From the NCBI GenBank assembly GCA_965287045.1, contig OZ336870.1, positions 116,746,001 through 116,810,000 on the forward strand: 64,000 nucleotides of DNA, read 5' to 3'. A program made the position numbers and the translations under genes. This document shows, one piece after another, positions 8,821-46,808 of the stretch. The notes under the pieces are model-generated. The model was not told the DNA's origin, did no database searches, and was given only the letters and a program-made list of their open reading frames with translations. This DNA is from Carcharhinus amblyrhynchos. Its lineage: Eukaryota. The stretch's first letter is position 1. Each line of letters begins with the position of its first letter.

Positions 8821-11631
8821 ATGTGGAGATGCCAGCATTGGACTGGGGTAAAAACAGAAAGAAGTCTCACAACACCAGCTTGAAGTCCAACAGGTTTACT
8901 TGTAGCAAACGCCACAAGCTTTCGGAACAGGCTGTCCCTTTGGCAGGTAGGTGGGAGTTCTGATCACAATTAGGGCACAAAGACACAAACTCAATTTAAA
9001 CGAATAATGATTGGAATGTGAATCTTTACAGCTAATCGAGTCTTAAAGGTACAGACAATGTGAGTGCATTAAGCACAGGTTAGAAGGATGTGTATTAGAA
9101 CATAGAACATAGAACATTACAGCGCAGAACAGGCCCTTCGGCCCACGATGTTGCGCCGACCAGTTTTTTATTGTTTCCAGACAGGAAAGTTAATGAGATT
9201 TTACAAGACCAGGCAAGTTGTGGGGGTATAGATTCACACCGCAATATGCCAACATCTTCATGCACAGGTTCAAACAAGACTTCTTCACTGCACAGAACCT
9301 TCAACCGATGCTATATACTGGATACATCGATGACATTTTCTTCCTTTGGACTCATGGTGAACAATCACTGAAACAATTATATGGTGACATCAACAAGTTC
9401 CATTCTACTCACCATGGGCTACTCTCTGGAATTGGTTACATTCTTGGACACACGCACCTTCAAGAATAGCCACCTCAGCACCTCACTGTACTGCAAACCC
9501 ACGGATAACCTCGCGATGCTTCACTCAACCCTAAACATGTTAAAGAAACCATCTCCCATGGACAAGTCCTCTGTATACACAGGATCTGCTCAGATGAGGT
9601 GCATTGCAACATACACTTCCAGATGCTGAAAGATGCCCTCATAAGAGCAGGATATGACGCACAACTCATTGATCGACAGTTCCGACGCGCCACAGCCAAA
9701 AACTGCACCGACCTCCTCAGAAAACAAACACGAGACACAGTGGACAGAGTACCCTTCGTCGTCCAGTACTTCCCCGGAGCAGAGAGGTTATGACATCTTC
9801 TCCGGAGCCTTCAACATGTCATTGATGAAGATGAACATCTCGAAGACGAACATTTGAGGACGGCCTCAACTGGGATCTTGGGTTCATGTCACACTATCTG
9901 TAACCCCCACAACTTGCCTGCACTTGTAAAATCTCACTAACTTTCCTGTCTGGAAACAATACACATCCTTTTAACTGTGCTTAATACTCTCTCCACTCAC
10001 ATTGTCTGTAATGTGACTTGATTAGCTGTAAAAGACTCACATTCCAATCATCATTCATGTAAATTGGCCAGGCAAAAGGCGGGGAATTATAGGCCGGTTA
10101 GTTTAACGTCTGTGGTAGGTAAAATGTTAGAATCCGTCATTAAGGAGGAAATTGCGAGGCATCTTGAAGGGAATTGCTTGATAGGGCGGACGCAACACGG
10201 TTTCATTAAAGGGAAGTCGTGTCTGACAAATTTACTGGAGTTCTATGAGGATGTGTCTAGGGCAGTGGATAGAGGAGAGCCGGTGGATGTGGTCTTTCTG
10301 GATTTTCAGAAGGCGTTTGACAAGGTACCTCACAAGAGGTTATTGCAGAAGGTCAGGGGACATGGAGTTGGGGGTAGGGTGTTAGCGTGGATAGAGGATT
10401 GGTTGTCAAATAGGAGGCAGAGAGTGGGGGTCAATGGGTGCTATTCGGATTGGCGGTTGGTGACTAGTGGGGTGCCCCAGGGGTCGGTGCTGGGGCCTCA
10501 GCTATTTACCATTTATATAGATGATCTGGAGGAGGGAACCGAGTGCAGGGTGTCGAAATTTGCTGATGACACCAAGATTGGGGGAAAGGCAAATTGTGCG
10601 GAGGGTGTGGAGAGTCTGCAGAAGGATCTAGATAGGCTGGGCGAATGGGCCAGGAAATGGCAAATGGAATTTAATGTTGGCAAGTGTGAGGTGGTCCACT
10701 TTGGTAGGAAGAATGGTAGGAAGGACTATTACTTACGTGGCGAAAAACTGCATCAGGCGACGGTGCAGAGGGACCTCGGGGTCCTTGTGCATGAGTCGCA
10801 AAAACCCAGCTTGCAGGTGCAGCAGGTGGTCAGGAAGGCGAATGGGATGCTGGCCTTCATAGCGAGGGGGATTGAATATAAAAGTAGGGAGGTCTTGCTG
10901 CAGCTGTATAGGGCATTGGTGAGGCCGCAGCTGGAGTACTGTGTGCAGTTTTGGGCGCCGCACCTGCGCAAGGATATTTTGGCCCTGGAGGGAGTGCAGA
11001 GGAGGTTTACTAGGCTGATACCGGAGTTGAGGGGATTGAGCTATGAGGAGAGGCTGAATAAACTAGGCTTGTACTCGTTAGAGTTTAGAAGAATGAGGGG
11101 AGATCTCATTGAGACATATAAGATGATGAATGAGATGGATAGGATAGAGGTGGAGAGACTCTTCCCGCTCAAAAAAGACAGTAGGACTAGGGGGCACAGC
11201 CTCAAGATAAAGGGGAGGCGGTTTAGAACGGAGTTGAGGAGGAACTTCTTCACTCAAAGGGTGGTGAATCTCTGGAATTCTCTGCCCGTTGAAGTGGTGG
11301 AGGCTGCCTCGCTAAATATTTTTAAGAAGCGGGTTGATGGGTTCTTGATAAGAGAGGGGATTAAGGGTTATGGGGAGAGGGCCAGAAAGTGGAACTGAGC
11401 CACAACAGATCAGCCATGATCTTATTGAATGGCGGGGCAGGCTCGAAGGGCTGGATGGCCTACTCCTGCTCCTATTTCTTATGTTCTTATGTTCTTAAAT
11501 TGAGTTTGTGTCTTTGAGCCTTGTTTGCGATCAGAACTCCCACCCACCTGATAAAAGGACAGCCTGTTCCGAAAGCTTTACTACAAATAAACCTGTTGGA
11601 CTTTCAGCTGGTGTTGTGAGACTTCTTTCTG
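8821..11631 (+). mobile_element. Penelope-like retroelement: RT remnant at about 9220-9840, 3' pseudo-LTR and an inverted 5' copy of it
   Basis: FTPQYANIFM...YIDDIFFLWTHG, a PLE-type RT motif. 8855-9218 is the reverse complement of 9902-10066 plus 11503-11631. 14-bp target duplication TTAG(T/G)GACTGGATG at 8807-8820 and 11632-11645. Confidence 0.8.
10067..11495 (+). mobile_element. Young 5'-truncated CR1 LINE with an uninterrupted RT reading frame (444 codons)
   Basis: ORF 10064-11398 with [23 protein letters not shown]; (TTCTTATG)n tail; TSD TAAATTG at 10060-10066 and 11496-11502. Confidence 0.95.
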
Positions 11632-13499
11632 TTAGGGACTGGATGTCACTGTCCAGTGGTAAATCACATGGATATGCGCTGGGTCCTGAATTATTTGTCA
11701 TTTATATAAATTACATGGATGACTATGTGGGGGATAGGATTCGTAAGTTTGTTGATGACACAAAGATTGGCCAGGTGGTTAACAGTGAGGTCGAGTGTCT
11801 TAGTCAAATGGGCAGATAAGTAGTATTCAACACTGAGAAGTGAGGGGTGATACACTTTGGAAGGAACAATTTGACATGGAAATATTCAATAAACAGCATG
11901 ACACGAGGAAGCTCTGTGCAACAAAGGGACCTTGGTGTGTTTGTCCATAGATCTCTGAAGGCGGAAGAGCATGTTAATGGACTGGAGAAAAAGGCATATG
12001 GGACACCTGCTTTCATCATCGAAGCATAGAACACAAAAGCAGGGAGTCACGTTGGGGTTGTATAAAACCTTGGTGAGGCCACAGCTGGAATACTGTGTGC
12101 AGTTCTGGTCGCCACATTATAGGAAGGATGTGATTGCACTGGAGGGGCTGCAGAGAACGTTCATCAGGATGTTGCCTGGTGACGCACGCCATGCCCCCCC
12201 CAACCATGACGTTCGTTGCTCTCTCTCTCTCTCTCCCCGTTTCTCTCTCTCTCCTTTCTTGAATAGCATTATTACATTTGCTAACTTCCAATCCACTGAG
12301 ACCCTTTCTTTTGGGATCTTATGATGTGGGCCATCAGGTCCTGGGAATTTTTCCGATCTTAAGCTTCAAGTTTCTCCAGTACTTGTTTCGGTTGGTATTA
12401 ATTACCCGAATTTCCTTTCTTATTAGCCTCGATGTTACCCTTGATTCCTGGTAGGACATATTTGTTTGACATCTGTCATTTCTTCATTCCCCATGATAAT
12501 TTATTCTGTCTTTAAGAAACCAACATTTACTTTCATTGTTCTTTTCACGCTTGTAAATGCCGCTTCAGTCCATTATTTTGTTCGTGGCAAGTTTGACTCC
12601 CACATTCTACATTTTCCTTTTTTAATCAACTTTTTGGTGGCTCTCTGGTGATTTCTAAAGCATTCCTAATTTACAGACCTATTACTACTATTCTTTGCAA
12701 CATTCTGTTAACCCAAAGTGATCACTGACCTCCTTAGCAAGCTATGAATGGATCTACCTTGAAGTTTTGTTTTTAATGAAATGTATGTTGATCTAATTCA
12801 GCCCACTTGCATAGTAAAGCCAAATACACTTGCAGCTGAAATACTTCCAGTTAACAATTGAGTTAACTACTGTTAACTCTAATTCCTTGTCTGCTGCAGT
12901 TAGTAAATCATCTGTCACTTTTCAGGCCTGTAGAATACCTGGTGAAAGTTAGATTTGTGGTTTTTCCACATTCATGAAAATCTTGACACACAAATATTAC
13001 TCATCATCGCCGTGGAAGAAAAACACCCAAGCAGTACTTCTAACAATTTCACACATTGTCCAAGTGACCCTGAAACAACACGTATTATTCTTCATACAAA
13101 GTTTCTAAAGGATTTCTGAAGCTTCAAGACTCCGATAAGCACAGCTGTCAAAATCACATCTTTTCAAATAGTTCTACTGAATAGCCATGCAGGGAAAAAT
13201 ATTGAAAGCCTGAAAATATTGTTCTGTTGACATACCCACCAAGTGTATAAATGCTAAATGCTTTGACAACCAAATCACTAGTGGACAACAATATAAAAAC
13301 TTTCAAAAGGAAATTCAAATTTAACAATCATGAATTAGCTTGAAATTAGCTCCCCCATTTATTGAGGCTCTGGATGAAATGATTACGCAGTTTTAGAGAT
13401 GAACATCCAGAACTTCACAGAAATAAAACCACTGGTGTGAACATGATAAACCTATAGCCCTTGGTGTAGGTAAGCTGCTTGCCATCACAAGCTTCGGTC

Positions 13500-15330: not shown

Positions 15331-17081
15331 AATACCATGGTGGTTTGTTTATGAATGCAAGACTTCATATGATGGTTATGTCTTCCTTAATTCAGGATAC
15401 AATGGAGCATGTTGGAGGGAGCGATGTGACAACATACTAAATCTTTCCAAGACAAATCCACGTGACCTCAAAGTTATGAAGGCAGAAACTCAAATCGGAA
15501 TCCATCAATAACAAGGTACAAGTTTTAACCTCTAAACACAAAGGAGGAGGCAGCTGGTCTTGTTGTGCACAGACTCAGTCATGCGAAGATTTGGAGAAGA
15601 CAACTACTAATGTGTCATGTAGAGGAAAAGGACTGCTTTTGTGTCATCCTATAGAAAGAGTGCTTGTTTGAAGAGAATTGTGGAGAGGTAAAGGCAAGGA
15701 GTGAAAGGGTGCCTTGCTACTGGAAGTCGATTTTATTATGCCATGATTGAGTGATAGGACTTCCTTTTAAAAAGGCCAAATTCGCCCATGTATGGCAGGA
15801 ACAGGAGATTTACTTGAGGCTCGGAAAAGCTTGAGACTTATGTACAAGACTACATCTTGGCTGAGAATGTGGTGTAGCGTAATGTATAATTGTGGCACTG
15901 GGTTAATGCAGACTATCTTTTCTGTAGTTTAGAGTATGAATGGACTATTAAGTTTAGCAAATGTAGATTTTAATTTGGTCAGTAAATGTCTTAAAATGCA
16001 AAATCTTGTTAAATGGTTATTTATGTTCACTGGGAAGTGAGTTTCACTTTCTAAAAGGAGATTGTTTTCTACAGGGTTCATACTGGGTCAAACATTCGAT
16101 AACATCTCTGGCAAATATTGCAAACATTGCACTAAGTTTTGTAACTAATGTGCATTGTTAGCTGTGTAAAATGACACCTTGTCCTTAGTCTCCCAATTAT
16201 TTTTAAGAACTTGCTGAATTTGCATGTTAGTTGTCCATTAAACTCGTCATATTGTGGTAAATTAGGCAATGAATAGCACAATTACTTTAACATCAATCAA
16301 CCTCAGTAACCCATATATTCAACAAATTAAACTGTGGAGTCTCATTTCTTCAAACAGTGAATTGTTCTTAGAGATTTTGAATCTAACATATTTTAAACTT
16401 TATATTTTTGTCTTACTTTTCTTATTTTTCCTCCTTCAATCCAATCTTTCTTTCCTTCTCTTTTTCTACTCTGCAACTCTAATTCATCCTTCTTCACAAT
16501 ATTCCCTATTTCTTTCTCAATTCTGAAATCTCATTGATTAGCAAGACAGATTGTTATAACTACTGTTTACCAAGCTTCCAGATGGCACGTTGCTCTCAGC
16601 TTGTTAATATTGGCTCATGCTTCCAAATTACATGAAAATTTCTATTATTAATTTTTGCCAATATTGCCTGATCAGAATTCTGTCAATATAAAATATTTCT
16701 TGTACATTAAAAGCATTATTTTTATGCCTGAATAATGATGTGGCTAGAGACATTTACTTTTATGTATTATTAACTAAAAATTCTCATTGTCTCAAAGCTT
16801 TGAATCCAAGCAGTTCTCACCATTCTGATTGAAAGAAACATTACTTCGTGCACCCTGCAGGGAAATCAGGTCACCGATTAATATCACAACCCATAAGCTC
16901 TCCATTCTTGCAATTTTGGCCTTCTGTGCACTCTCCCCACATCCTTCACTTGCCAATGGTTCCTTTAGCATTCTAGGCCATAAACATCTTTGTTTCTCTC
17001 TTACACTCTACTTGGAAGCTTGTAGCTTACTCTACTTTAGCAATATCCAATAGCGAAAAAAAAGACCCAAGATGCATTCAC

Positions 17082-17159
17082 CTTTAAGAATGTGCTGGAA
17101 TCCTTATAGATTTCTTCATTATATTGCATTTCTGTTTCTTCTTCTTCCACCACTTCATC
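17082..17159 (-). CDS. METTL14: METTL14 exon 4 (78 nt, DEVVEEEETEMQYNEEIYKDSSTFLK)
   Basis: Acceptor TTTTGTTGGCAG|GAT, donor AAG|GTGAAT. EEIYKDSSTFLK is conserved in METTL14. Confidence 0.95.
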
Positions 17160-19830: not shown

Positions 19831-21391
19831 ATTAGAGATTGTTTCTTGGAACAGTATTTTGTGTAACCAACCAGCAAGTAGGCCACTCTGGATTTAGTAT
19901 AGTGTAATGAGGAGGGATTAATTGATAGCCTCATGGTTAAGGATCCTATAGGGAGTAAGAATCATGATTAAATTTTGAATTCAGTTTTGGGGGTGAGAAA
20001 GTGGAGTCCCACAGTAGTGTTCTGGAATTAAATAAAGGAAATTACATAGACATGAGGGCAGATTTGGCCTGAGTGAGCAGGAAGGCTAAAAGATAGGATA
20101 GCGGATGAGCAGTGGGAATTGTTTAAGGAGAGTTTAAAGAGAGACAGAGAAACATAGCTCTTCAATGCCTGGAGCAACCTAACACAAAGGAACATGGTTG
20201 CAGTTGACAGAAACCACATATTCCATCCTCAGGACATCCCTGTAAGAATTCCTCAGAATACTGTCCCAGACTATCTTAATTTGCTTCATCAATGGCCTCC
20301 CCACCCTCATTGCAAAGTTGGGGATGCTCATAATGGTTGTGGCTCAGTTCCATCTGCAAGTCCTCCAATAGCAAAGCAGTTTGCGACTGCATTCACCAAG
20401 TCATGGACATTTAGGCTTGACCATCTCCAGCAAGAGAGTGTAATCCTAATGCCTGACATTCAATACCACTATCATCACTGAAATACCCAAAACCAACATG
20501 ATGGCCAGAAGTCACAGGGATAAGAATCACCTTTAAATTGATTGAAACTTTACTAGACTGATCATAAGTAGTAAATTCTCTGGTTACAAGAGCAAGTCAG
20601 ACGCTGGGAATTCTGTAGCAAGTAACTCACTTCCAACTCCACAAAGCCTGTCCATCATCTGCAACAAACAAGTCAGTAGTACAATGGCGGACTCTCCTTT
20701 TGCTTGGAAGAATGCAGCTCCAATAGTACTAAAGAAGCTTTGCATCATCCAGGAAAATGCACTCTCCAACAGCTTAAACACTTTCTGTATCATCAGTGCA
20801 CTGCAGAAACTCACAAATGCTCCTTTGACAGCACCTTACAAATCCAATGCCTCTATTGGCTAGAAGAAAAAGGACAGCAAACACATCGGAGCAGCATCAG
20901 CTGTCGGTTCCCCTCCAAGTCATGTATCATTATGACTCAGTTATACCACTGTTCCTTCACCATCTCTGGGTCAGAATACTGAAGTCTCTAACAAATCCAG
21001 TATCTATTGGTTCTGTTCTGAAAAGATGGCAGCATGCTGATGCAGTCGGTGTTGTAGCGACCACCCAAGTCATCAGGAACAAACAGTAAATACAAATTTA
21101 GGCTAGTTTTGTCAATTTCAAAAGAATACAAATCTAAAAACAATGAACAGGATTCTTATCCCAGTTCTGGCAAAATTTAAAGTTTACAGTGGATGTTTTT
21201 AATCAGATACGCATTTTATGATGAGTTTCATAAGCCAAACTATAAATTAAGTTCTGCTGGAAATATTTTACAGCTTTTATTCAAATGTTTCCATCATGTG
21301 GATTGGGCCAGATAAAAGAAATTGGATAGCATGTGTCACTTTTAGTTTGAAGGATGAAACAGAATAGTAGACATTGCAGTGATATAATTAC

Positions 21392-21479
21392 TTTATACTC
21401 TTCAAATTCTTCTTCACTAGCTTCCCTTTCTTCAGGAAATTTACGCTTGGCAGTTGGTGCAGATGTGTCATATGATGCC
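21392..21479 (-). CDS. METTL14: METTL14 exon 3 (88 nt, ASYDTSAPTAKRKFPEEREASEEEFEEYK)
   Basis: Acceptor TTTCTAG|G, donor AAA|GTAATT. ASYDTSAP..KRK motif of METTL14; phase 2 to 0. Confidence 0.95.
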
Positions 21480-22638
21480 CTAGAAATATCAAACAAAACA
21501 TTTTCTTGTTTAAAAAGGCATCCATTAAAAACAATTATTACAGATGTAAGAATATTTCACTTACATGCACATGCAAAGTGTACTATAGAAATAGTGTACA
21601 ATGTAAATAATGTACAAGCAACCCAAATAGGTCTGCTAAGGCTCTAAATGAAGCATCTGAATCATCTTTCTTATCCCTCCCCTATGAATTATTTACACAA
21701 GTGTGTTATGTTGTCAAATATATATTGCATTTTGTAAGTTAACAAGCCCGGCAGAGTAAAATAATTTTGCTACAGTAAATTATGGAGCTTAAACAATTGG
21801 GGACAAATGGAGCTTTAATATGGGATCAAAAACTTTAATGCAAAATAAAGTACATTTAAAGAGAGGGTTCTCAACAATGCTCCATTTTAATTAAAATTTA
21901 TAAACGCCGACAATTTTCAGAATGCTGTCACAATCCAAAAGTGCACGTGCAATTTGTTTAATCAAAAGTTCAATCTTAAATTGATCATGTTTTGTTTTTA
22001 AATGGATGATTCCGACACAGGACGAGTTCCCCAATATTAAAGCTGCAGTCTCCATCAATCCATTGGAGAAATAAATTTTTCTTAAAGTACTCACCAAAAT
22101 AGTCTGCTCCTTTAAAAAAAGGAAACAAAGACGTATCATGATCTAATATTGTTGACTAAATTGGAATTCTCACTACAAAAATGCAACTTTCAACCAGAAG
22201 ATTCATCAACAAGTATCTGCACACCAAATGGCCCCATCCGCTGGTGCATATTCTTGATGCACAGAGACTACAACGTAGGGAAACAGGAAACAAAGCTTAA
22301 TCCCAAATCTTTAGTGAAGTGATTAAGCATTTTTGTACTCATTCAAAAAGCTGATGGTGACAGAACTGTACTGAATTATACCAAAGACTCTCAATCTGAT
22401 AACTTACTACAGATTCTTTTTTAACTGCTTATGGTTAAACATGAGACACTCCATGTCAAATGTTACATTATTCTTAAATATGGCAGGAAAGAAAACCATA
22501 ATTTGTTCTTCCAAATACAACTGAAACAAAATATATTGGCTTACAAAATCAGAAAAAAATCCTCTCCGCAACGAATTGAAATATAATTGATGCACATTGT
22601 TAACTTTCTTTTCCTAAAAAACTACCAGATTCAATGAA

Positions 22639-24125
22639 CATAAGAACATAAGAAATAGGAGCAGGAGTAGGCCAACTAGCCCTTCGAGCCTGCCCTGCCA
22701 TTCAATAAGATCATGGCTGATCTGTCGTGGCTCAGTTCCACATTCCCGCCCTCTCCCCATAACCCTTAATCCCCTCTCTCATCAAAGACCCATCAACCCG
22801 TGTCTTAAAAATATTTAGCGAGGCAGCCTCCACCACTTCAACGGGCAGAGAATTCCAGAGATTCACCACCCTTTGAGTGAAGAAGTTCCTCCTCAACTCT
22901 GTTCTAAACCACGCCCCCCTTTATCTTGAGGCTATGCCCCCTAGTCCTACTGTCCTTTCTGAGCGGGAAGAGTCTCTCCACCTCTATCCTATCCATCCCA
23001 TTCATCATCTTATACGTCTCAATGAGATCTCCCCTCATTCTTCTAAATTCTAACGAGTACAAGCCTAATCTATTCAGCCTCTCCTCATAGCTCAACCCCC
23101 TCAACTCCGGCATCAGCCTAGTAAACCTCCTCTGCACTCCCTCCAAGGCTAAAATATCCTTGCGTAAGTACGGCGCCCAAAACTGCACACAGTACTCCAG
23201 CTGCGGCCTCACCAATGCCCTATACAGCTGCAGCAAGACCTCCCTACTTTTATATTCAATCCCCCTCGCGATGAAGGCCAGCATCCCATTCGCCTTCCTG
23301 ACCACCTGCTGCACCTGCAAGCTGGGTTTTTGCGACTCATGTACAAGGGCCCCGAGGTCCCTCTGCACCGTCGCCTGCTGCAGTTTTTCTCCACGTAAGT
23401 AATAATCCTTCCTACCATTATTCCTACCAAAGTGGACCACCTCGCACTTACCAACATTAAATTCCATTTGCCATTTCCTGGTCCATTCGCCCAGCCTATC
23501 TAGATCCTTCTGTAGACTCTCCACACCCTCCGCACAATTTGCCTTTCCACCAATTTTGGTGTCATCAGCAAATTTCGACACCCTACACTCGGTTCCCTCC
23601 TCCAGATCATCTATATAAATGGTAAATAGCTGAGGCCCCAGCACCGACCCCTAGAGCACTCCACTAGTCACCATCCGCCAATCCGAATAGCACCCATTGA
23701 CCCCCACTCTCTGCCTCCTATTTGACAACCAGTCCTCTATCCACGCTAATACCCTACCCCAACTCCATGCCCCTGACCTTCTGTAATAACCTCTTGTGAA
23801 GTACCTTGTCAAACGCCTTCTGAAAATCCAGGAAGACCACATCCACCGGCTCTCCTCTATCCACCGCCCTAGACACATCCTCATAGAACTCCAGTAAATT
23901 TGTCAGACACGACTTCCCTTTAAGGAAACCATGCTGCGTCCGCTCTATCAAGCAGTTCCCCTCAAGATGCCTCACTATTTCCTCCTTGATGACGGATTCT
24001 AACATTTTACCTACAACAGACGTTAAACTAACAGGCCTATAATTCCCCGCCTTTTGCCTGGCACCCTTCTTAAACAACGGCGTAACATTAGCTGTTTTCC
24101 AATCTTCCGGCACTTCCCCTGAATC
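22639..24125 (-). mobile_element. Young CR1 LINE (same subfamily as 10067), 5'-truncated, RT disrupted
   Basis: ORFs 23754-24128, 23651-23884 and 22904-23644 are nearly identical to the 10064 ORF; (CATAAGAA)n tail; TSD CAATGAA/CAACGAA at 22632-22638 and 24126-24132. Confidence 0.95.
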
Positions 24126-27100
24126 CAACGAAAATTATGCAGCAAAGCTGCTTTAATTCAAGTTGAAGGAAATAAAAATTAAAACATCATATTAGGTAAA
24201 GCAATAGATATTTTTCACCCCAAGTTATTTTAGTAATCAGAGTCAACTAATAATATTGTTAGAAAATGAAACATTTTCCATTATTTTTACACTGTTTGCA
24301 TCAACCAAGAACAGTACAGATACAGCCTCAGAAAAGGTACTAACACTGCACCAATCTGATATTTCCATTCCATTTACCTCAGTAGACAATCTATATTAGT
24401 ATATCTGAAACCTATTACAAAAATAATGGGATTGTCTGGTTTTATGCCAATTAAAGACTAGGTTAAGATGAGCTTACATCACATGGAACCCATATAAACA
24501 GCACAACATCATCCACCTTCCACCAGTCCCAATGAAAACAAGGACGTTATAATCCATCATGAAATCCATTCTCTTTAAACAGCATCTTTAATCCAATGTC
24601 AATCACACTGTAAAGCAGTGGACCCCTGCTACATACAACCAAGAATCTCCCTTCATAACTTAAGCTGACATTTGCTTTAGTAGTCATTTACACTAGCTGC
24701 TCTCTACAACCCAACCCAATGATAGAACAACGAATGCTTAGGTAGTCTGCACCATGAGATGTTGCTTCATTATGCTATTTTGACACAAGATGCACCAAGG
24801 CTATACTCAAACTTATTTAATTTCATCATTTAATACCTGCACACAATCTTGCAGTTGGGAATCAGAGTGTAGTGACCAAAAGCAGAATATTGTGCTAAAA
24901 TGATCCCCCTCTCAAGATCACAAAGCAACCCTAATACCCTCCACGGACAGTTGGTAAGCACAAACTCCGAATCGCATTGGACTAAGCACCTGTTGTTAAC
25001 AAGATTTGTTTACAACTCCACTGAAAACAAAAACTTCAAAACAGGAAATAACTATACGCATAGGGATAAACTTCACAAGAGAACATGATGCAATAGATAT
25101 TCTCTAAGACCTTCTCAACCATGTTACTGGTGATTAAAGCCAGATATGTCCAACTTTAATATAACAAAATAAGTGGATTCAACAACCATTCAGTTGATTT
25201 CATCTCTGTTCAATGTAAAAACGCAACGTGTGCCAACTATTTATGATGTTATCCCCTGGGCTACCCAAGTAATTTATATTCATTTTGGAGACTGGCACAA
25301 AAGTCATTATGCTCCACTGGTGCTGCCTGAGTCTGGAAATTACCTGCAGATTAAACAACAACTTGTGTTTATAATGCACTTTGGCTTAAGAAAACCAATT
25401 CACCTCAGCTAGATTGCTCCGAGAAAACTAAAAAATGTTCAGACATTTTAGTGCATTGTAGCAAGATGCCTCCTGCTTAATTGAAAACCAAAAAGGCAAA
25501 TAATAAAACCCACGAGTTGCATTTTAATGTTGATATAGCAGCACAATAATATGCAACAATACATAACATCCCTGCAGCCTCAAAAGTACAAAATCTGCAT
25601 TAACATACTAAACTATCAATATACACCAGACAATTGTATTAGGCTTGGTGCTATTATTTCATAGCCACTGAAGGACAAAATGGCATATTTTAGATAGTTA
25701 CAGAATAAGTTTTAATAAAGGAATCTAAACCTAATATTAGGTTAAGCATCAAATAGAATTTCAACCCTTCCCAAAGTAGAGAATCTGGTCATAATTACTC
25801 AGAAGTACAATTCTAAGATATTATTTTAGCACTGACAGGAATTGGTGTAACAAACTGTCATTGTTTCAGTGCAGCTTATCCTCCATCAGCTCTTTACATC
25901 AAACACAGTGCTTACCAGCTTCATGATAAATGCAATTTTGATCTATACCTTTTCTTCACTCTGTTCAATCTCTATGCATCTAAAAACAGACAGTTTGCAG
26001 TTATAAAAATACTCATCTATACTATTTCAAATGAGTATAAATTCTGAAACTATTGCGTGATTTCAAGAATAGAATTCTGACTGTCAGGCCAGTCCGACCA
26101 TGCAAAGATAATAAGTAACACTTCCCATTCCAACTTCATTTTATGCTGGATAGGAAGATAATTTGTCAATCCAGTTACTGATGAAATAAAATTTAACTAA
26201 TTCTGTTAGTACAAAAGGTAAACGGATGACGAACTGTACAAGTCCTTTTTCAAAGAACAGCAAAAAAACAATTTATCACCTGTGGAATTTTGTGTAAAAT
26301 CAGTTCCCAAAATATCTGGACAAAAATCTTTTGTTGGCATAAGGACTCCAAGCAATATTGGGTTGGGCCAACCTCAACCCCATGTTTCGATAAGGGGAGT
26401 CATAGGCACAATACTGCACATAATTTGATGTCAGATTGTTACTAACTCTAGAGCTATGCTACCTTAAAACGTTACAAACGAGATGCGTTCACTAATGTTC
26501 GCGTATGTGTTAAACGCCTAAGCATGTGCAGTTGTGCTCCGAATCATCATGCACTATAGAGCACTATATTTTGTCCATATGTAGCTTAGCTGCACGCTTT
26601 ACAAATCAATGTGCCGATAGGACTGGGATTTGCTTTGATAGCCATTATGTGGTTTTAATGTGTCATCCTGTAACACTGGAATTGCGGATGTTACATTAGC
26701 TCCAACTATTATACGAATGCCGACAATGTTATTAAACAACCATATCATCACCAGAGTAGAACTTAATGGAAACAATGTAGCCAAACCAGAATGTCAGCAA
26801 ATTTATACCACAATGTTTATTTTAATTTGCATCACCATGGCTGTGAATCCATTGGAAAAATAGCTATGTAGCACAGGGATCACAGAAGCCACAGGCCCGG
26901 CCAGTGCAGAAAATAAATGTGACACAAGATACATTGTTGGGTCAAAGCAAGAAGATGTACCAATTTTCTCAAAATGTGGACAAATAAAGTTAAAATATTT
27001 AAGGGAAAATACAAAAACTTCAATTTCATACAATTAAGTATTTCACATGTTGTCAGCTATAGGAAGATTGTGATAAAGTACAGAGGTGTAATGGATCAAT

Positions 27101-28839
27101 TCCTTTACTTATTTAAAATAGAGTTTGGAGTTATAAAAACAGTTAAACAAAGTTGACTTGATAAATATATGAGCCAGTTTATTACAAGAAATTTTCATCT
27201 CAGCTTTAAAATCCTACGCTTGTCACCATAAAAACAAAATCCTGTTTAGAAGCAATCCTCTAAAGATGTGGCTTGGATAGTCATCTCTGCAGACCAAGAA
27301 ATATTAAAACAGGCTTTAGTTATAAAAATAGAAGCAAGGTACCAGAGACCACTGCATATTAGAAAGGGGCACAGTCATTATAACAGTTTCTCTCATAGAA
27401 TGGCTCTTGGAAATGGTTCTGTCACAAGTGCCATGAGATGCTTTGAATTTTACTTTACTTTAAAGGCTAGAATCTATCATTCTTACACAAAAGAGATACT
27501 GACTGCTGAATATTCAAGATTCTAACAGCTTTAAGCTGCTCAGCTGGCAGTGCCTCTTTAGGGTCAATAAAGAAATTATAAATTTGCCTCAGGTTTAGAC
27601 AGCTGTAAAATATTATTTGTTTGGATCTTATATTTAGAAAAGTGCAATCCAGAGCAGTTAACACCTCATCCTGTAAGCTTCACAAACTTACATGGGTTAC
27701 AGAACATCTATAGTGTGAACTGAAAATAATAGTTAAAGTGCATAACATGCATTTGTCATAATAAATTTACATCGGCCAAACACAAACAATTATTTTGTAA
27801 GTGTTACCTGAGCAAGTGATATATAAGCTTCAAAAATCAACTTGGAAATGCATTGCACACTGTTTTTAATCCACAAACATTGCATCCAAACCAATACTGC
27901 AAGATTAGGATGTGCAGCCAGAGTTAAAAAGTCAATTGTGCCTCAGTGACAAAAAAGCTTCAAACATATGTACTTGTCCATATTCAGTTTTACTTCTTAT
28001 TCTACTATTAGAATTATTTTAAATGGCAGAAAGATATCCTTCAGTATCATAAAATTGAAAAAATTCCCAAGAAACCCTGCACGGTAGGGGTTCTATGATT
28101 CCATGAAACTCAATGTGTCAGCAAAGAATGCGGCTTTGGACTAGGTTGAAAATATGCTACATATGGTAAATTCTACCTGACTTGAGTTACAAAGCCAGCC
28201 TTGGGCAATCGTGCACACAAAATCACTTTGCCCAGGCCTAAAACTGACAGGTCTATAATCTTGACAATGCAAGATAACAATTTTACGTCTTGGGCAGCAT
28301 TTTGGGTCTCCTAAAACTAGCATCGTAGGGCTGATTCAATTATACTGAATATAGTAGGTATGAATAAGATACTAGAGAGCATGAATTAAAGCTGCAATCC
28401 TTCACTTATAAAGATTGTTCCTAGCTCGGAACTTTCCACAGAAGGGAGGGAATATAGAATAATGAAAGAGGAGCAAAGGAAAGGGGAGCAGTACACTATT
28501 TTTGTTGTTTGCCTCCTGTGCTTAAAACACAGGTCCCAACTGAGATGGACAAAAAATAGAAAATAAGGGACTATCAGTGTACAAAAAAGAAAGTATTCAC
28601 ATGCATCCCTCTTACTGGATCATATGGTATTTATGCAAGATGGTACTGTATGAAGAATTCAGTTTTTTTCAGGAATTAATTTTTAAATATCGCTTTGCAT
28701 AAAGATGGGGAACGGCGAGTCTCTGGCTTTACAAACCAATGTTATTGATATTTCAAACCTGTTGAACACGCTACTGCAATCTTCTGTACTACCTAAGATA
28801 CAAAAAAAAGGTTTACGGTGCAGTTGCTTTCATACTAAC

Positions 28840-28928
28840 CTGCAGGTTTCCCTTGTTTCAGCAATCTCCCTCTGCTCTTCCTTGCTGTTCAGAATTGCTC
28901 CAATATTGTCTGCACTTTCAGCTCCTAG
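28840..28928 (-). CDS. METTL14: METTL14 exon 2 (89 nt, [30 protein letters not shown])
   Basis: Acceptor TTCCTTAG|CTA, donor CAG|GTTAGT. Peptide matches METTL14; phase 0 to 2. Confidence 0.96.
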
Positions 28929-29479
28929 CTAAGGAATAGAAATCTCCGTGAAATTTCGCATTAAATAAAGTTACGCAAAAAACTCAAGTTGGCAATATAT
29001 ATTTTATGAAAGGGTAGTGTACAGTAAAATTGCAGTGTGTTAATTTCTTCTTTGGAACAATAGCATAGTTTTTTGGTAACTGTACCAGTACCCCAGAGAT
29101 GTGCGCTAATGATATTTTCAGGATGTGGGCAATGCTGGCTAGGTCATCATTTATTGCCCATTACTAACTGTCCTTGAGAAGGTGATGGTGAACTGCTTTC
29201 TTGAACCACTGGAACCCCTGATCCAGGGAAACAACTTGAAATGTTAATACGGCAACTGGGAAATTTAACACTTAATCGGAAAAGAAACAGTTCAGACCAG
29301 TCTGCTTATTTCCCTGTTTTACTGGTGCTCCATTTTAAGGTATACAAGACCAGTTCAGACCAGTATTCTTATTTCCCCATTTTTACTGTTTCTTCACACA
29401 CTTGTGTGTGTTAAACTGCCTTAAGGACTTCACAGGCACCTGTTAAAAGCAAAGTACGACAATGATCCACAGAATGAGT

Positions 29480-30340
29480 GTAGTTCAATGCATAGGGTTT
29501 AAGAAACATCTTAAAGGAGAAAAAGGGTAGGGAAGCAGAGATTAGGATAAAAAGTTCCTTAGGACCTTTAGGGTTTTGGTAACTGAAAATATGACCATCA
29601 ATGATGAAGTGATTAAAATCAGGATGTGCAAAAGATCAGGATTAGAGGAGCACTGATACAGAATCATCTCAGAGGAGGAGGTTACAGAAGTCGAAGGCAC
29701 CAAAGCCAATGATGTTTTTGAAACAAAGATGCAAATTAAATGGAAAAAACCTTGGATTGCTAACCAGTCTGTGAGGGCAAGGGTAATGGGCAAATGGGAT
29801 TTGGTACAAGGTGGAACACTGAATGCAGAGTTTTGGAAAGCATCAAATTTACAGAAATAGAACGTACAAGGCTGGCAAAGAGAGACAGTCAAGTCTAGAG
29901 ATAAGAAAGGTACAATGATGATTGCAGCAGTTTACAAGCTGAGGCAGGGCGGCGACAGACAATGTTATGGGGGTAGAAAGACAGTTGAGATGTGTGGTTA
30001 GAAGCTCATCTCAAAATCAATTATATCATAGCTCAGAACAGTCAGGTTCAGCCTCAGAGTTGCCAGAGAGATAGGGGTGGGTCAGTGGTTCGGGAATGTG
30101 GTTTGAAGTGGGGATCCAAAACGTTAGCTTAAATCATTCAAATATTTAATTGGGGAAGATTTCTCACTCAGGACAAGCAGTTAACATTTTAGAAAAAGTG
30201 CAGGAATCAAAAGGGATTATGGTGAGGTAAAGCTGGGTGTCATCAGAGCACACGTGGAAATTCATGCTGTGTTTTCCAGATGATATCACCGGTGATAGCA
30301 GATAGTTGATGAATAGGAGTACATCAAGGATAGATCAAAT
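29480..30340 (-). mobile_element. Degraded L2-type LINE fragment
   Basis: Similar by eye to 18730-19830. Boundaries approximate. Confidence 0.5.
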
Positions 30341-31310
30341 TGGCAGGCAGTAGCTAGGGATCGGTGCTAGGACCCCAGCTTTTCACAATATATATTGATT
30401 TGGATGAGGGAACAAAATGTTTGCAGATGATAGCAAGCTGGGTGGGAAGGTGAACTATGACAAGGATGTAGAGATCCTTCAGAATGATCTGCACAGGTTG
30501 GGTGAGTGGGCAAGTCAATGGCAGATGCAGTATAATTTGGAAGCAAAAAACAAGGCGACAGATTACTACTACCTGAATGGCTGTAAATTGGGAGAGGGGA
30601 GTGTGCAGCAGGACCTGGGTATCCTTGTACACCTGTCACTGAAGGTAAGCATGCAGGTGCAGCAGATGTAAAGAAGGAAAATGGTATGTTGGCCTTCATT
30701 GTGAAGGGTTGAATACAGGAGCAGGGATGAGCAGGGTCTTGGTGAGGCCCCACCTAGAGTACTGTGTACAGTTTTGGTCTCCTTTTATGAGGAAGAATGT
30801 TCTTGCTCTCAAGAGAGTGCACCAAAGGTTTACCAGGCTGATTCCGGGACAGGCAGAACCGATGCATGAGGAGAGATTGACTCGGTTAGGATTGTTTTCG
30901 CTGGAGTTCAGACGAACGAGGGGAGATCTCATAGAGACTTATAAAATTCTAACAGGACTTGACAGGGTAGATGCAGGGAGGATGTTCCCAGTGGTGGGGG
31001 AGTGTAGAACCAGGGTTACAGTCTGAGGATTCAGGGTAGAACATTTAAGACAGAGGTGAGGAGATATTTCTTCACCCAAAGAGTGATGAGCCTGTGGAAT
31101 TCATTGCCACAGGAAGCAATTGATGCCAAAACACTGAATGTATTCAAGAGGTGGCTTGATATAGCACTTGGGGCGAATGGGATCAAAGGTTATGGGGAAA
31201 AAGCAAGATTAGGCTATTGAGTTGAACAATCAGCCATGATCATAATGAATGGAGGGTTAGACTCAAAGGGCCAAATGGCCTCCATTTTGCTGCAATGTTC
31301 TAAGTTTCTA
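30340..31310 (+). mobile_element. Old CR1 3' fragment
   Basis: FADDSKLGG, LEYCVQFWSP and RGDLIETYK remnants; CR1 3' UTR. Confidence 0.85.
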
Positions 31311-32489
31311 TATTAGGGATACGGGGTAGTAGGGGAATAGTTGAGCTAAAAGATCAGCGTGATTTACTTGAACGGTGGAATAGATACAAGTGGACAAATG
31401 GCCTACTCCTATTTCCTATACTCACAATCAACCAGTAACTTAACCGTAAGTACTATGGCTACAAGAACAGGTCAGAGGCCAGAAACTCTAATAACAAGTA
31501 ACTCATCTCCTGACTCCCCAAAGTCTGTCCATCACTTACAAGGCACAAAACTAGGGTGAAAAACACCACAGCTGTATCTATATCAGATAGAGTGCAGTGA
31601 TTCAAGGCATCAGCTCATCACCACCTTTGCAAGGCAATCATTAATGGCCAGAATAAATGGGAGTTTTATTAAGCAATGTTCACATCCAATGAATAAATTT
31701 TAAAAATAACATTTCATGAAACAAGCACTTTTTTAAAAACTTCAAACACAAATTACAATACGTCTCACCCAGAAACTATGTCAGTTTGCAAATAACAAAA
31801 ATACAATGTCCTTGACAATTCAGATTTTCCCAATTATAATAATTTCAATCAGATGCAGTGCTTTAAATGTTGCTAGTTTCTGTACACCACAAACAAATGT
31901 TATTTTTTTCAACAATTTTGTTTATAATTAATTACAGATAAAACATACAATGGCAGAGCAGTTTAACTTAACTAGTGGCTTAAAATCATTAGAGCTGAAG
32001 ACTCAATTCTCTAGCAAGATCATTTTATCAGTCACTTTTATTGAAGGAACTGAAGTTGTACCCTTAACTATCAGACAAGCCATGTTGGAGTTCACTTCTA
32101 AAGTGAATGTGAAGGATCTACTTAGCTCCTCAGCCATTTTTTTCCCTGTATACCTAACCTCCTCAAAAGATCATTGCAATCTTTAATTATTTCCTGGCTT
32201 CTAACAGTTCTTTTTAAATAAACATTCCATTACTCCTACAGTTTTCCTCTATCCTTTTTTCTAAAGCATTCCTATGTTTTTGTGTAGTGACATTTGGTGC
32301 CCCCAAAATAAAATTCCTACTAAGTTCATTTTACCATGAGCCCTCAGCCTACCAACCAGTCTGGATTAAATAAATGATTCTGTTCCTCTGTAGTGCAATT
32401 ATTTTTACTTACCACACTCCAATGTACTCTTCCCAAAACCTCCTAATACATAAGAATTCAAACTTATTGTACTTCAATATACATAATTT

Positions 32490-33410
32490 GAAGAACAACA
32501 TAACTGGATTGATTAGTAAGTTTGCAGACAACACAAAGGTTGGTGGATTTGTGGATAGTGATGAGGACCATCTGAGGATATAGCAGGATACAGATCAGTT
32601 GGAGACTTGGCGGAGAGATGGCAGATGGAGTTTAATCTGAACAAATGTGAGGTAATGCATTTTGGAAGGTCTAATACAGATAGGAAATATCCAGTAACTG
32701 GCAGAATCCCTAGGAATATTGATTTGCAAAAGGATCTGAGTGTACAGGTACACAGGTCACTGGAAGTGGCAACGCAGGTAGAAAAGATAGTCAGGAAGGT
32801 ATACGGCATGCCTGCCTTCATCGGCCAGGGTACTGAGTTTAAAAACTGGCAAGCCATGTTGACGTTTTATAGAATCTTACTGAGGCCACACTTGGAATAT
32901 AGTGTTCAATTCTGGTCACCACACTACCAGAAGGATGTGGAGGCTTTGGAGAGGGTACAGAAAAAATTTACCAGGATGTTGCCTGGTATAGAGGGCATTA
33001 GCTATGAGGAGAGGTTGGAGAAACTTGGTTTGTTTTCACTGGAGCAAAGGAAGTTGAAGGAAGACCTGATAGAAGTCTACAAGATTATGAGAAGCATGGA
33101 CAGAGTGCATAGGCAGAAGCTTTTGTCCAGGGTGTAAGAGTCAATTATTAGGGTTTAAGGTGCGAGGGGCAAGTTTTAAAAGAGATATAAAAGATAGATT
33201 TTTTACAGAGTGTGGCGGGTGCCTGGAGAGGTAATGGAAGCAGATACAGTAGGGAGTTTTAAAGGGCGTCTTGACAAGTACATGAATGAGATGGGAATAG
33301 AGGGATATGGTCTCCGGAAGCGTAGGGGGTTTTAGTTAAGTTGGGCAGCATGGTTGGTGCAGCCTTGGAGGGCCGATGGGCCTGTTCCTATGCTGTAATT
33401 TTCTTTGTTC
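32490..33410 (+). mobile_element. CR1 3' fragment
   Basis: ORF 32607-33137 (WQMEFN..KCEVMHFG..LEYSVQFWSP). Confidence 0.85.
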
Positions 33411-33690
33411 GGTGGCACAGTGGTTAGCACTGCTGCCTCACAGCACCAGGGACCTGGGTTTGATTCCTGGCTTGGGTCCTTGTGTGGAGTTTGCACATTC
33501 TCCCTATGTCTGCATAGGTTTCCTCCCACAGTCCAAAGATGTGCAGGTTAGGTTGATTGGCTATGCTAAATTGTCCGTTAGTACCAGGGAGGCTAGCTAG
33601 GTAAATGGGAATTGGGCCTGGTGGGATTGTGGTTGGTGCAGACTTGATGGGCTGAATGGCCTCCTTCTGCACTATAGAATTCTATAAAAA
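33411..33690 (+). mobile_element. tRNA-derived SINE
   Basis: GGTGGCACAGTGGTTAGCAC head, B box and V-domain-like core. Confidence 0.8.
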
Positions 33691-33834
33691 ATCCTATGAA
33701 AACTAGTTTTATTCCTCCAGAATCTCAATGCAGAAGAGGCCCTATAACTCGAGTCTGCACCAACACAGAGAGAGAAGCCTGACCTACTAACCTAATCCCA
33801 TTTCCAGCACTTGACTTGATCTTGAATGATGTCA

Positions 33835-42132: not shown

Positions 42133-42420
42133 CCTCAACCGTCTCTGCCGCCGGAACTGACCCTTCACCCCCGCGCGCACAGCGCGCTGCCTCACTTCCG
42201 GCCAAGCGGGAGGCGCGGCTGAAAGGGCGGGGCCAATGCTGATGACATTGTAAGGGGCGGGGAATTGGGCGAGGGCGGGGAGGGGCGGGGCAAATGGAGA
42301 TGACATTAAATAGGGCGGGGCCTTGGGCGGGGAGGGGGCGGGGACAGTGGGGATGACACTGAATGGGGCGGGGCCGGTGGTGAAAACATTGCAGGGGGCG
42401 GAGCCGGTCTCAGCACCTTC
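42133..42420 (-). promoter_or_regulatory. METTL14 5' UTR and CpG-island, TATA-less promoter: about nine Sp/KLF GC boxes, an ETS/GABP site and a CCAAT
   Basis: Repeated GGGCGGG at 42225-42400, CCGGAAGTG (minus strand) at 42193-42201, CCAAT at 42233-42237, directly upstream of the ATG. Confidence 0.85.
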
Positions 42421-42653: not shown

Positions 42654-43930
42654 GATTATGAGTGAAACTCAGTTTTGCTCCCCCCAACTGGAAATTGACA
42701 ATTTCAATAGCACAATTTTGAAAATGTAGCTGGGCCCAGAGAACTTGATTTTCACATTCACAAATCATTAAATGTGTAGGGAAAGTTGTTAAGGTGGATA
42801 TAGCTATATTTAGGTTTACAGCTGAAGGCTCTTCTGCTTCAGGAACCATGCTGTAATATAGGGTGCTGTTCACCATGGACCTTCACGTTAATCTTGGTCT
42901 AGAGGTGTATGTTGTCTTCCTTGATGATACATTCATCCAGTTGGCAAAGCTCCTTAGAAAGATCACTCTTTGCCTACTTCAATCTTTTACCATCAATCTT
43001 TCCCATCAGCATCAAACTTACTGTGCTGTAATTTCTTACGATTCCATTACCACATTGCATTTAAGAGTCTGTTGCTTTAGCACATACCACTGTGCATAAT
43101 TTTATCTACCTTATATCTCAAATAAGTCAGGATTCATTCTATGAATTCTTAAATAGGTCCCAGTGCAACATAAATGTTAGGAGTAAGGCAACAGGAGAAT
43201 CAAGAGTTTGGATAATAATGTGAGGGGTATGCATGATGTGAGATGCCCTCTAGCTGTCTTTCGTCCACTCTGTAAGTGAATAACTGCCATCATGAAGATG
43301 CTGCTGATGGGAGTAAAGGATAGAATGCATGGGCTGTCAGTCTACATTTTCAATATATGCAGCAATGAATCACAAATCTGAATAAAAATATATTTGTATT
43401 ATTCTATGTTCTGACAAAAGATGCACTGATTCACAAGAAACTAGATCCACGGGAACAACATGATATCAGTCAAATGACTACCACAAACCAATGATGTGAG
43501 AATTGTAATAAAAGAAAGTAGCTATGTTTGCTCTTGGGTTCACTCTGGATACAATTTCCTAACTATTAAGGACATAAGAACTCGGAGCAGGAGTAGGCCA
43601 TTTGGCCCCTCAAGCCTGCTCTGCCATTCAATAAGATCATGGCTGATCTTTTTGTGGACTCAGCTCCACTTATCCGCCCGCTCACCATAACCATTAATTC
43701 CTTTGCTGTTCAAAAAGTTATTCCTGTCTTAAAAACATTCAATGAGGTAAACTCACCTGCTTCACTGGGCAATAAATTCCACAGATTCACAACCCTTTGT
43801 GTGAAGAAGTTCCTCCTAAACTCAGTCCTAAATATGCTCCCTCTGGTTCTAGTTTCATCTGCCAGTAGAAACAATTTCCCTGCTTCTATCTTATCTATTC
43901 CCTTCATAATCTTATGTGTTTCTATAAGAT

Positions 43931-44607
43931 CATAAGAACATAAGAAACATAAGAACATAAGAAATAGGAGCAGGAGTAGGCCGTCTGGCCCTTCGAGCCT
44001 GCCCCGCCATTCAATAAGATCATGGCTGATCTGTCGTGGCTCAGTTCCACATTCCCACCCTCTCCCCATAACCCTTAATCCCCTCTCTTATCAAAAACCC
44101 ATCAACCCGCGTCTTAAAAATATTTAGCGAGGTAGCCTCCACCACTTCAACGGGCAGAGAATTCCAGAGATTCACCACCCTTTGAGTGAAGAAGTTCTTC
44201 CTCAACTCCGTTCTAAACCGCCCCCCCTTTATCTTGAGGCTGTGCCCCCTAGTCCTACTGTCCTTTCTGAGCGGGAAGAGTCTCTCCACCTCTATCCTAT
44301 CCATCCCATTCATCATCTTATATGTCTCAATGAGATCTCCCCTCCTTCTTCTAAACTCTAATGAGTATAAGCCTAGCTTATTCTGCCTCTCCTCATAGCT
44401 CAACCCCCTCAACTCCGGCATCAGCCTAGTAAACCTCCTCTGCACTCCCTCCAAGGCCAAAATATCCTTGCGTAAGTACGGCGCCCAAAACTGCATACAG
44501 TACTCCAGCTGCGGCCTCACCAATGCCCTATATAGCCGCAGCAAGACCTCCCTACTTTTATATTCAATCCCCCTCGCTATGAAGGCCAGCATCCCATTCG
44601 CCTTCCT
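43931..44607 (-). mobile_element. Young CR1 3' fragment nested in the older CR1
   Basis: Near-identical to the 10067 copy; (CATAAGAA)n tail. Confidence 0.92.
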
Positions 44608-45112
44608 GTCTCCCCTCATTTTTCTGAATTTCAATGAGCATAGCCTCTGACTACTCAATCTCTCCTCATAAGCGTACCCTCTGAACTCCAGAATCAACCT
44701 AGTGAATCTCCTCTGTACCTCCTCCAGTGCCAGTATATCCTTTCTCAAGTAAGGAGACCAAAACTGTACACAGCTCTCCAAGTATGGCCTCACCAGCACC
44801 TTGTACAACTACAACATAACCTCGCTGTTTTTAAACTCCATCCCTCTAGCAATGAAGGACAAAATTCCATTTGCCTTGTTAATTACCTGTTGCACCTGCG
44901 AACCAACATTTTGTGATTCATGCACAAAGACACCCAGGTCCCTCTGCACAGCAGCATTTAAATAATAATCCATTTTGCTGTTATCCCTACCAAAGTGGAT
45001 GACCTCACATTTACCAATATTGTACTCCATCTACCAGACTGTTGCCTGCTCCACACCCCTTTGCAGATATTCAATGTCCTCTGCACACTTTGCTCTGTCA
45101 CTCATCTTAGTG

Positions 45113-46808
45113 GTGTTAGCGATGGAAAGGTGGTAGGACTGGAGGGTCTTAATGACATTACTGTTACTAGAGAGGCGGTGCTCGACAGACTGGAGGGGCT
45201 GATTGTGGACAAGTCCCCAGGACTGGATGGAATGCATCCGAGGGTTCTGAAAGAAATGGCGGAGGTGATAGTGGATGCCTTGGTGGTTATTTTCCAAACG
45301 TCGCTGGATTCCGGGGAAGTGCCGGATGATTGGAAAACGGCTAATGTTACGCCGTTGTTTAAGAAGGGTGCCAGGCAAAAGGCGGGGAATTATAGGCCGG
45401 TTAGTTTAACGTCTGTGGTAGGTAAAATGTTAGAATCTGTCATTAAGGAGGAAATTGCGAGGCATCTTGAAGGGAATTGCTTGATAGAGCAGACGCAGCA
45501 CGGTTTCATTAAAGGGAAGTCGTGTCTGACAAATTTACTGGAGTTCTATGAGGATGTGTCTAGGGCGGTGGATAGAGGAGAGCCGGTGGATGTGGTCTTT
45601 CTAGATTTTCAGAAGGCGTTTGACAAAGTACCTCACAAGAGGTTATTGCAGAAGGTCGAGGGACATGGAGTTGGGGGTAGGGTGTAGCATGGATAGAGGA
45701 TTGGTTGTCAAATAGGAGGCAGAGAGTGGGGGTCAATGGGTGCTATTCGGATTGGCGGATGGTGACTAGTGGAGTGCCCCAGGGGTCGGTGCTGGGGCCT
45801 CAGCTTTTTACCATTTATATAGATGATCTGGAGGAGGGAACCGAGTGTAGGGTGTCGAAATTTGCTGATGACACCAAGATTGGGGGAACGGCAAATTGTG
45901 CGGAGGGTGTGGAGAGTCTGTAGAAGGATCTAGATAGGCTGGGCGAATGGGCCAGGAAATAGCAAATGGAATTTAATGTTGGCAAGTGTGAGGTGGTCCA
46001 CTTTGGTAGGAAGAATGGTAGGAAGGACTATTACTTACAGGGCGAAAAACTGCGGCAGGCGACGGTGCAGAGGGACCTCGGGGTCCTTGTGCATGAGTCG
46101 CAAAAACCCAGCTTGCAGGTGCAGCAGGTGGTCAGGAAGGAGAATGGGCTGCTGGCCTTCATAGCGAGGGGGATTGAATATAAAAGTAGGGAGATCTTGC
46201 TGCAGCTGTATAGGGCATTGGTGAGGCCGCAGCTGGAGTACTGTGTGCAGTTTTGGGCGCCGCACCTGCGCAAAGATATTTTGGCCTTGGAGGGAGTACA
46301 GAGGAGGTTTACTAGGCTGATACCGGAGTTGAAGGGGTTGAGCTATGAGGAGAGGCTGAATAAACTGGGCTTGTACTCGTTAGAGTTTAGAAGAATGAGG
46401 GGAGATCTCATTGAGACGTATAAGATGATGAATGGGATGGATAGGATAGAGGTGGAGAGACTCTTCCCGCTTAAAAAAGACAGTAGGACTAGGGGGCACA
46501 GCCTCAAGATAAAGGGGGGGGCGGTTTAGAACGGAGTTGAGGAGGAACTTCTTCACTCAAAGGATGGTGAATCTCTGGAATTCTCTGCCCGTTGAAGTGG
46601 TGGAGGCTGCCTCGCTAAATATTTTTAAGATGCGGGTTGATGGGTTTTTGATAAGAGAGGGGATTAAGGGTTATGGGGAGAAAGCGGGAAAGTGGAACTG
46701 AGCAGCGACAGATCAGCCATGATCTTATTGAATGGCGGGGCAGGCTCGAAGGGCTAGTTGGCCTACTCCTGCTCCTATTTCTTATGTTCTTATGTTCTTA
46801 TGTTCTTA
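45113..46808 (+). mobile_element. Young CR1, longest copy here, with a few stops and frameshifts
   Basis: ORFs 44995-45687, 45705-45923 and 45966-46529; (TTCTTATG)n tail. Confidence 0.95.

Follow-up and report, generated by a model that had tools for sequence, protein, structure and literature searches.

A candidate poison cassette exon in intron 2 of METTL14 in Carcharhinus amblyrhynchos and its conservation in three close relatives

Introduction

A stop codon that lies more than 50 nt upstream of the final junction between exons directs a message to nonsense-mediated decay, and the poison exons of SR-protein genes, which Lareau is said to have described in 2007, are reportedly ultraconserved across vertebrates and self-binding. 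Human cryptic poison exons (Margasyuk 2024, PMC11632617) are, in the available portion of that paper, unannotated cassettes in conserved intronic blocks with conserved flanks, of lengths not divisible by three and with stops to which the 50-nt rule is applied, and they are backed by split reads and vertebrate-wide scores. Within the m6A machinery, m6A-dependent unproductive splicing has been reported for mouse Wtap, Ythdc1, Ythdf1, and Spen (Wei 2021, PMC8327914); as far as the accessible text of that study goes, these events mostly involve alternative 5' splice sites or last exons, the m6A peaks lying close to the 5' splice site, and the m6A genes known to be so tuned in mouse are accessory and reader genes only, with Mettl14 not among the responders. 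For METTL14 itself, skipping of exon 10 under CLK1/SRSF5 is described in a review (PMC10583157) and appears as a row in a supplement (PMC13078869), both available in part, and isoform 2 of the human and ape protein (P0179) is 64 aa long.

Here, we describe a 64-nt segment of METTL14 intron 2 in Carcharhinus amblyrhynchos that resembles several of these systems. Like the SR-protein poison exons, it would be a cassette that carries a stop, has conserved flanks, and belongs to an RNA-processing gene; like the human cryptic exons, it would be an unannotated cassette in a conserved intronic block, with a length that is not a multiple of three and a stop that obeys the 50-nt rule; and like the mouse genes, it would place a potentially non-productive exon in a gene of the m6A machinery. 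It differs from the first two in that it is known from the DNA of close relatives, of which there are three. Skipping of exon 10 affects the same gene but is a different event, while P0179 also cuts METTL14 at about residue 64, as the candidate exon would. Our best explanation, to which we assign a probability of roughly 0.55, is that the segment is a real, lineage-restricted poison cassette of low inclusion that would stop METTL14 at codon 64 and commit the message to nonsense-mediated decay. If so, a core subunit of the m6A writer would join the m6A-pathway genes tuned by unproductive splicing, and such switches would appear to have been gained or lost in particular vertebrate lineages; without a link to m6A, it would be a further poison exon among those of RNA-processing genes, which is a modest addition.

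Results and discussion

The window, by which we mean the whole 64,000-nt stretch of contig OZ336870.1 that was analyzed, contains an open reading frame with matches to PDB chains of METTL14 and a 94% match to shark METTL14, identifying the host gene as METTL14. Its exons were located by mapping the Stegostoma protein P0001 onto the window:

42132-42067, minus strand: METTL14 exon 1
28928-28840, minus strand: METTL14 exon 2, 89 nt, ending in phase 2
21479-21392, minus strand: METTL14 exon 3, 88 nt
17159-17082, minus strand: METTL14 exon 4, 78 nt, donor AAG/GTGAAT
7904-7817, 5849-5759, and 3422-3281, minus strand: METTL14 exons 5, 6, and 7

Joined together, exons 1-7 form an open frame, and exons 8-11 were located in the genome stretches adjoining the window. 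Lengthening exon 4 by GTG (17079-17082, minus strand) would preserve the frame, but no GT donor would then remain.

The candidate lies between exons 2 and 3, and the features that define it are as follows:

25916..25979, minus strand: candidate poison cassette exon, 64 nt, in METTL14 intron 2, proposed from its AG and GTAAGC flanks, composition, and conservation
25910..25915, minus strand: 5' splice site GTAAGC of the candidate exon, with a score of 7 that falls among those of the gene's real donors, and the same in three relatives
25980..26010, minus strand: 3' splice site region with AG, pyrimidine tract, and a 30-nt AG-free zone, the same in three relatives
25943..25945, minus strand: TAG at codon 64, in frame if the candidate exon follows exon 2; the exon ends 27 nt after it, and nine junctions lie downstream
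25949..25979, minus strand: 31-nt short form via an internal donor, AAG/GTATAG, which scores 5.75, less than any of the seven real donors (6-8)
26009..26038, minus strand: predicted 11-bp hairpin directly upstream of the branch region, the extended fold of which pairs the pyrimidine tract

The segment had been proposed from the DNA letters of the window, and the sequence, coordinates, 64-nt length, AG acceptor, and CTG/GTAAGC donor given in that original prediction all proved exact. Both splice sites are canonical, lie in an intron of a coding gene, and score in the same range as the gene's real exons, and a TAAC near 26003 is what we take to be a possible branch point. Joining the segment to exon 2 appends eleven new residues and then the TAG, reproducing the peptide originally read through the junction (R-C-I-E-I-E-Q-S-E-E-K-V-stop), and with exons 3-11 still to come, the last junction is more than 50 nt downstream of this TAG. 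The 31-nt form likewise shifts the frame, as had been stated, and reaches a stop early in exon 3. The description of the surroundings as non-repetitive also stands: by a copy count that ignores very common words, the surrounding 700-nt stretches have one match each in the 2.92-Gb genome, and within the window the region does not match itself elsewhere. Acceptors at 26145 and 26021, paired with the same donor, were less favored, and the former lies in variable sequence.

It is clear from our results that the splice motifs of the candidate, taken alone, are not above chance. Using a simple rule-based score (pyrimidines, AG-free zone, and match to the donor consensus) for acceptors and donors 30-250 nt apart, 22 pairs with 19 donors score at least as well as the candidate on the sense strand of 38.8 kb, or about 1 per 2 kb, compared to 12 on the antisense strand. 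Relaxed rules give 53 pairs, 45 of which would be poison-like on inclusion, and therefore the motifs and the stop together prove nothing. In composition, the candidate does resemble an exon, with a purine content of 42/64 (0.66), which ranks among the highest 0.3% for 64-nt windows across intron 2, and 6.2 GAA per 100 nt, compared to 0.63-0.70 and 5.6-10.3 per 100 nt, respectively, in the real exons 2-4; among the 51 of the 53 pairs that are non-annotated, it ranks first for GAA density and third for purine. This richness is consistent with an exon rather than independent evidence for one, because the original prediction selected on these same features.

Conservation is a different kind of evidence. 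A search with 24300-29000, a long stretch for so small an exon, gave seven sequencing runs from four studies, none of them recorded as RNA. Four were compared (X1, X2, X3, and X5), the remaining three being of X3's sample. X1, initially guessed to be RNA, consists of scattered intronic pieces covering neither exon 2, exon 3, nor the candidate and is silent on splicing. The other three, X2, X3, and X5, look like DNA from three close relatives that diverge by only 1.0-2.4%. Outside a LINE-like insertion in the same intron, there are 64 differences in 6222 nt for X2, 156 in 6397 nt for X3, and 146 in 6292 nt for X5. The insertion and the slowly evolving block that emerged from the comparison are as follows:

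22622..24125, minus strand: recent LINE-like insertion in METTL14 intron 2, with RT-like open reading frames and very high repeat depth
25560..26034: block of slow evolution that surrounds the candidate exon and continues downstream, with 4 variable sites in 475 nt versus 20 in the adjoining 326 nt (26035-26360)

Across the 801 nt from 25560 to 26360, where X2, X3, and X5 each cover the candidate exon, there are 24 variable positions, and none of these falls in the 202 nt that span the exon (25833-26034). The exon, its splice sites, and its stop are unchanged in all three relatives. For the block as a whole, 15-19 variable sites would be expected where 4 are seen (P below 0.001), with Fisher P values of 0.002 for X3, 0.0001 for X5, and 0.006 for X2, which share one branch and are not mutually independent; the limits of the block were drawn post hoc, and its downstream edge is that of the stretch examined, so that the real edge may be farther away. 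The exon extended by 40 nt on its upstream and 20 nt on its downstream side (124 nt, an interval set by convention but after the variant positions had been seen) has no changes where 3.8-6.2 would be expected (Poisson P 0.002-0.02), and with CpG transitions removed, none versus 3.9-4.8 (Poisson P 0.008-0.019), and for the 64 nt of the exon by themselves, P is 0.04-0.14. On its upstream side, conservation stops 55 nt above the acceptor, the point at which the splice signals end; on the other side, the block continues for 350 nt or more beyond the donor. Taken together, the evidence that constraint is centered on the candidate exon and extends downstream from it is moderate in strength, and this local conservation is, unlike the motifs and composition, independent support for the candidate. 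The poison-cassette part of the original interpretation thereby gains support, its exon, splice sites, and stop being the same in three of three relatives within a slow block.

It may be that the block is instead a conserved non-coding element, such as an enhancer or a splicing regulator of exon 3 or of the microexon described below, and that the exon-like motifs within it are incidental and never spliced. We regard this as unlikely, though somewhat less so than the other alternatives. The long reach of the conservation past the donor fits a non-exonic element equally well, pairs of such motifs are common, and no RNA family or structure accounts for the block: Rfam models run on 21000-29500 gave 2 sub-threshold matches, none inside the block, and the block folded as a whole showed no stable overall fold. 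However, the cleanest 202 nt are centered on the exon and both of its splice sites, the upstream limit falls at the branch region, and the purine and GAA content is that of an exon.

Distinctly unlikely, in our judgment, is a chance pseudo-exon with few substitutions through luck or a low local mutation rate. The 22 comparable pairs would allow for this, as would the lack of any CpG in the block, and the statistics soften when rates are taken to be patchy, as a negative binomial with an assumed shape of 3 gives P 0.035-0.08 for the exon with its -40/+20 flanks and overdispersed P values span 0.035-0.1, while a gap of at least 202 nt among 24 sites in 801 nt has a chance of 0.02. Against this, the deficit survives the removal of CpG transitions and is seen against each of the three relatives, and the site had been picked without use of conservation.

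Returning to the poison cassette, a further point in its favor is that intron 2 already houses an alternative exon, the microexon, and the points that weigh against it are the common quality of its motifs, the low divergence of the relatives, and the part of the block downstream of the donor. In the mechanism that we envisage, the exon would be spliced in at a low rate, placing the stop at codon 64, and under the 50-nt rule, the inclusion transcript would be expected to undergo nonsense-mediated decay. Inclusion would be set by ordinary splicing factors acting through the GAA-rich body and the conserved downstream intron, and perhaps also by the hairpin over the acceptor, and the exon would lower METTL14 output in certain tissues or states. 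The hairpin region (25980-26060) has a z of -3.4, the best of 6 windows, and ranks 9th among 214 acceptors, and variants at 26035 and 26056 within the predicted fold retain pairing (C-G to U-G and G-U to A-U, respectively); four of the six sub-windows had z above -2. The predicted pairing of the pyrimidine tract is a weak hint that the acceptor may be damped.

The segment could also be a real exon with another use, either with the 31-nt form replacing exon 3 in frame or as an alternative last exon with its end at an ATTAAA farther downstream (25716 or 25528), a decidedly doubtful reading in our view. The short form is in frame and stop-free when exon 3 is skipped, 31 and 88 both being 1 mod 3, and joining exon 2, these 31 nt, and exon 4 would replace 29 residues, including a basic patch, with 10 mostly acidic ones. 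The poly(A)-like signal at 25716 lies inside the block, and an m6A-dependent alternative last exon is known for Wtap, according to the available part of PMC8327914. On the other hand, the internal donor is weak, ATTAAA is common locally (6 in 1.7 kb), and the peptide of the exon was not found after exon 2 in any of 210 proteins among the cluster members listed, which gave two unrelated 4-mer matches.

As a special case of the poison cassette, m6A deposited by METTL3-METTL14 itself might promote inclusion, giving negative feedback, as the original prediction had suggested in calling the exon a homeostatic switch for the writer. The precedents of Wtap, Ythdc1, Ythdf1, and Spen speak for this possibility, and DRACH motifs occur in and beside the exon. 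Both GGACT sites on which the idea drew do exist:

26091..26095, minus strand: GGACT, altered in X2, X3, and X5 but still a DRACH, outside the block
26241..26245, minus strand: GGACT in the variable region, outside the block

Near the exon, DRACH motifs number 16 in 801 nt, the same density as the gene-wide average of 20 per kb, and we found no conserved or enriched DRACH near an alternative 5' splice site of the kind seen in Wtap and Ythdc1. In the accessible tables of Wei 2021 (PMC8327914), mouse Mettl14 has one splicing cluster, a skipped 210-nt exon that does not respond to METTL3 depletion (p=0.45), and its nascent level is also unchanged. Furthermore, METTL14 protein drops when METTL3 is removed, so the balance is already maintained at the protein level, through METTL3 binding, without splicing. 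The suggested feedback is thus unsupported, and it is improbable that m6A is the input controlling the exon. A broader scenario, in which cartilaginous fishes keep an m6A-sensing poison exon and a protein-altering microexon in METTL14 intron 2 while bony vertebrates lack or have lost the switch, is highly improbable.

With respect to the poison cassette in other species, a metagenome scan for METTL14 yielded at least one locus from 597 candidate stretches (L002, teleost-like, with a whole 1012-nt intron 2), and this intron has no match to the candidate exon or the microexon by a local alignment that likewise failed to detect the shark exon 3 used as a positive control. In the available part of the PMC11632617 supplement table of human poison exons, there are no METTL genes and no METTL14 intron-2 exon; the accessible table of PMC8091538 (human or mouse) also has no METTL14 intron-2 exon but is weak evidence, as SRSF3 is missing there too; and in the available supplement of PMC13078869 (human or mouse), the sole METTL14 poison-exon entry is a 211-nt exon beside the last exon. 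A literature search, outside of which most subscription papers lie, found no paper describing either a poison exon or a microexon in intron 2 of METTL14.

A search for additional shark isoforms returned 16 representatives, one of them chondrichthyan. As for the truncated product itself, none of 49 short protein matches ends in the peptide of the candidate exon, which is uninformative, as these are cluster representatives with few shark transcript-derived entries. Seven chondrichthyan METTL14 entries of 364-367 aa (P0003, P0104, P0105, P0107, P0110, P0111, and P0113) have the Met of exon 4 as their first residue. For several of them, more than one transcript accession exists, RefSeq examples being XP_041045773.1, XP_043552731.1, XP_032879373.1, and XP_042195778.1, and they span sharks, rays, and chimaera (Chiloscyllium, Amblyraja, Mobula twice, Carcharodon, Narcine, and Callorhinchus). 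Gene predictors place such internal starts when the upstream frame is broken. Inclusion of the candidate exon, with or without the microexon, would lead to this start, but skipping of exon 2 or exon 3 would do so equally, and we rejected these RefSeq isoforms as proof of inclusion because several events yield the same start. A separate observation concerns exon 3, which has an internal donor-like site at 21445 (minus strand, AGC/GTAAAT) that, joined to exon 4, gives Arg and a stop at codon 65. This ends the protein exactly as in the 64-aa isoform P0179, which we infer to fit the internal exon 3 donor and not an intron-2 cassette. The site may be an old frame-breaking event or a mere by-product of coding sequence.

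The other alternative exon of intron 2 was overlooked originally and is better supported than the 64-nt candidate:

22095..22109, minus strand: alternative in-frame microexon, 15 nt, flanked by AAG and GTGAGT, in METTL14 intron 2, adding Ser-Arg-Leu-Phe-Trp

Five extra residues of P0001 between exons 2 and 3 map to 22109-22095, which is preceded by a long pyrimidine tract. The insert is present in 6 of the 8 chondrichthyan entries that cross the exon 2/3 junction, predicted isoforms from five shark genera, and is missing from Stegostoma isoform X2 and the Callorhinchus entry; among all 210 proteins compared, 6 carry it, and the bony-vertebrate entries among them do not. Microexons range from 3 to 27 nt, and neural ones of the SRRM4 type have a UGC motif just upstream of the acceptor. 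At 15 nt, in frame, and with predicted isoforms both with and without it in Stegostoma, the segment fits a frame-preserving microexon; it does not have the neural SRRM4 pattern, as no TGC occurs within the 45 nt upstream of its acceptor. Given its recurrence in gene predictions and its intact splice sites, this is very likely a real alternative microexon, and it would put five residues, two of them aromatic, into the N-terminal region of METTL14 in sharks. The GAG-CAG that follows its acceptor may possibly provide in-frame alternative acceptors, and the microexon contains one DRACH (AGACT).

Several minor features of the locus were also observed. The LINE-like insertion of intron 2 is missing in X3 and X5, the contigs of which join across the site, and is probably present in X2 too, where contigs run into both of its ends, making it a possible phylogenetic marker. 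Further LINE- or SINE-like copies lie in the introns and upstream, at 10000-12000, 43500-48600, and 30300-33700, as indicated by self-matches and RT-like open reading frames. Finally, the sequence at 42133-42330 (minus strand) is GC-box-rich and promoter-like, and an in-frame upstream ATG near 42306 would add 58 residues, but this ATG probably sits upstream of the METTL14 transcription start.
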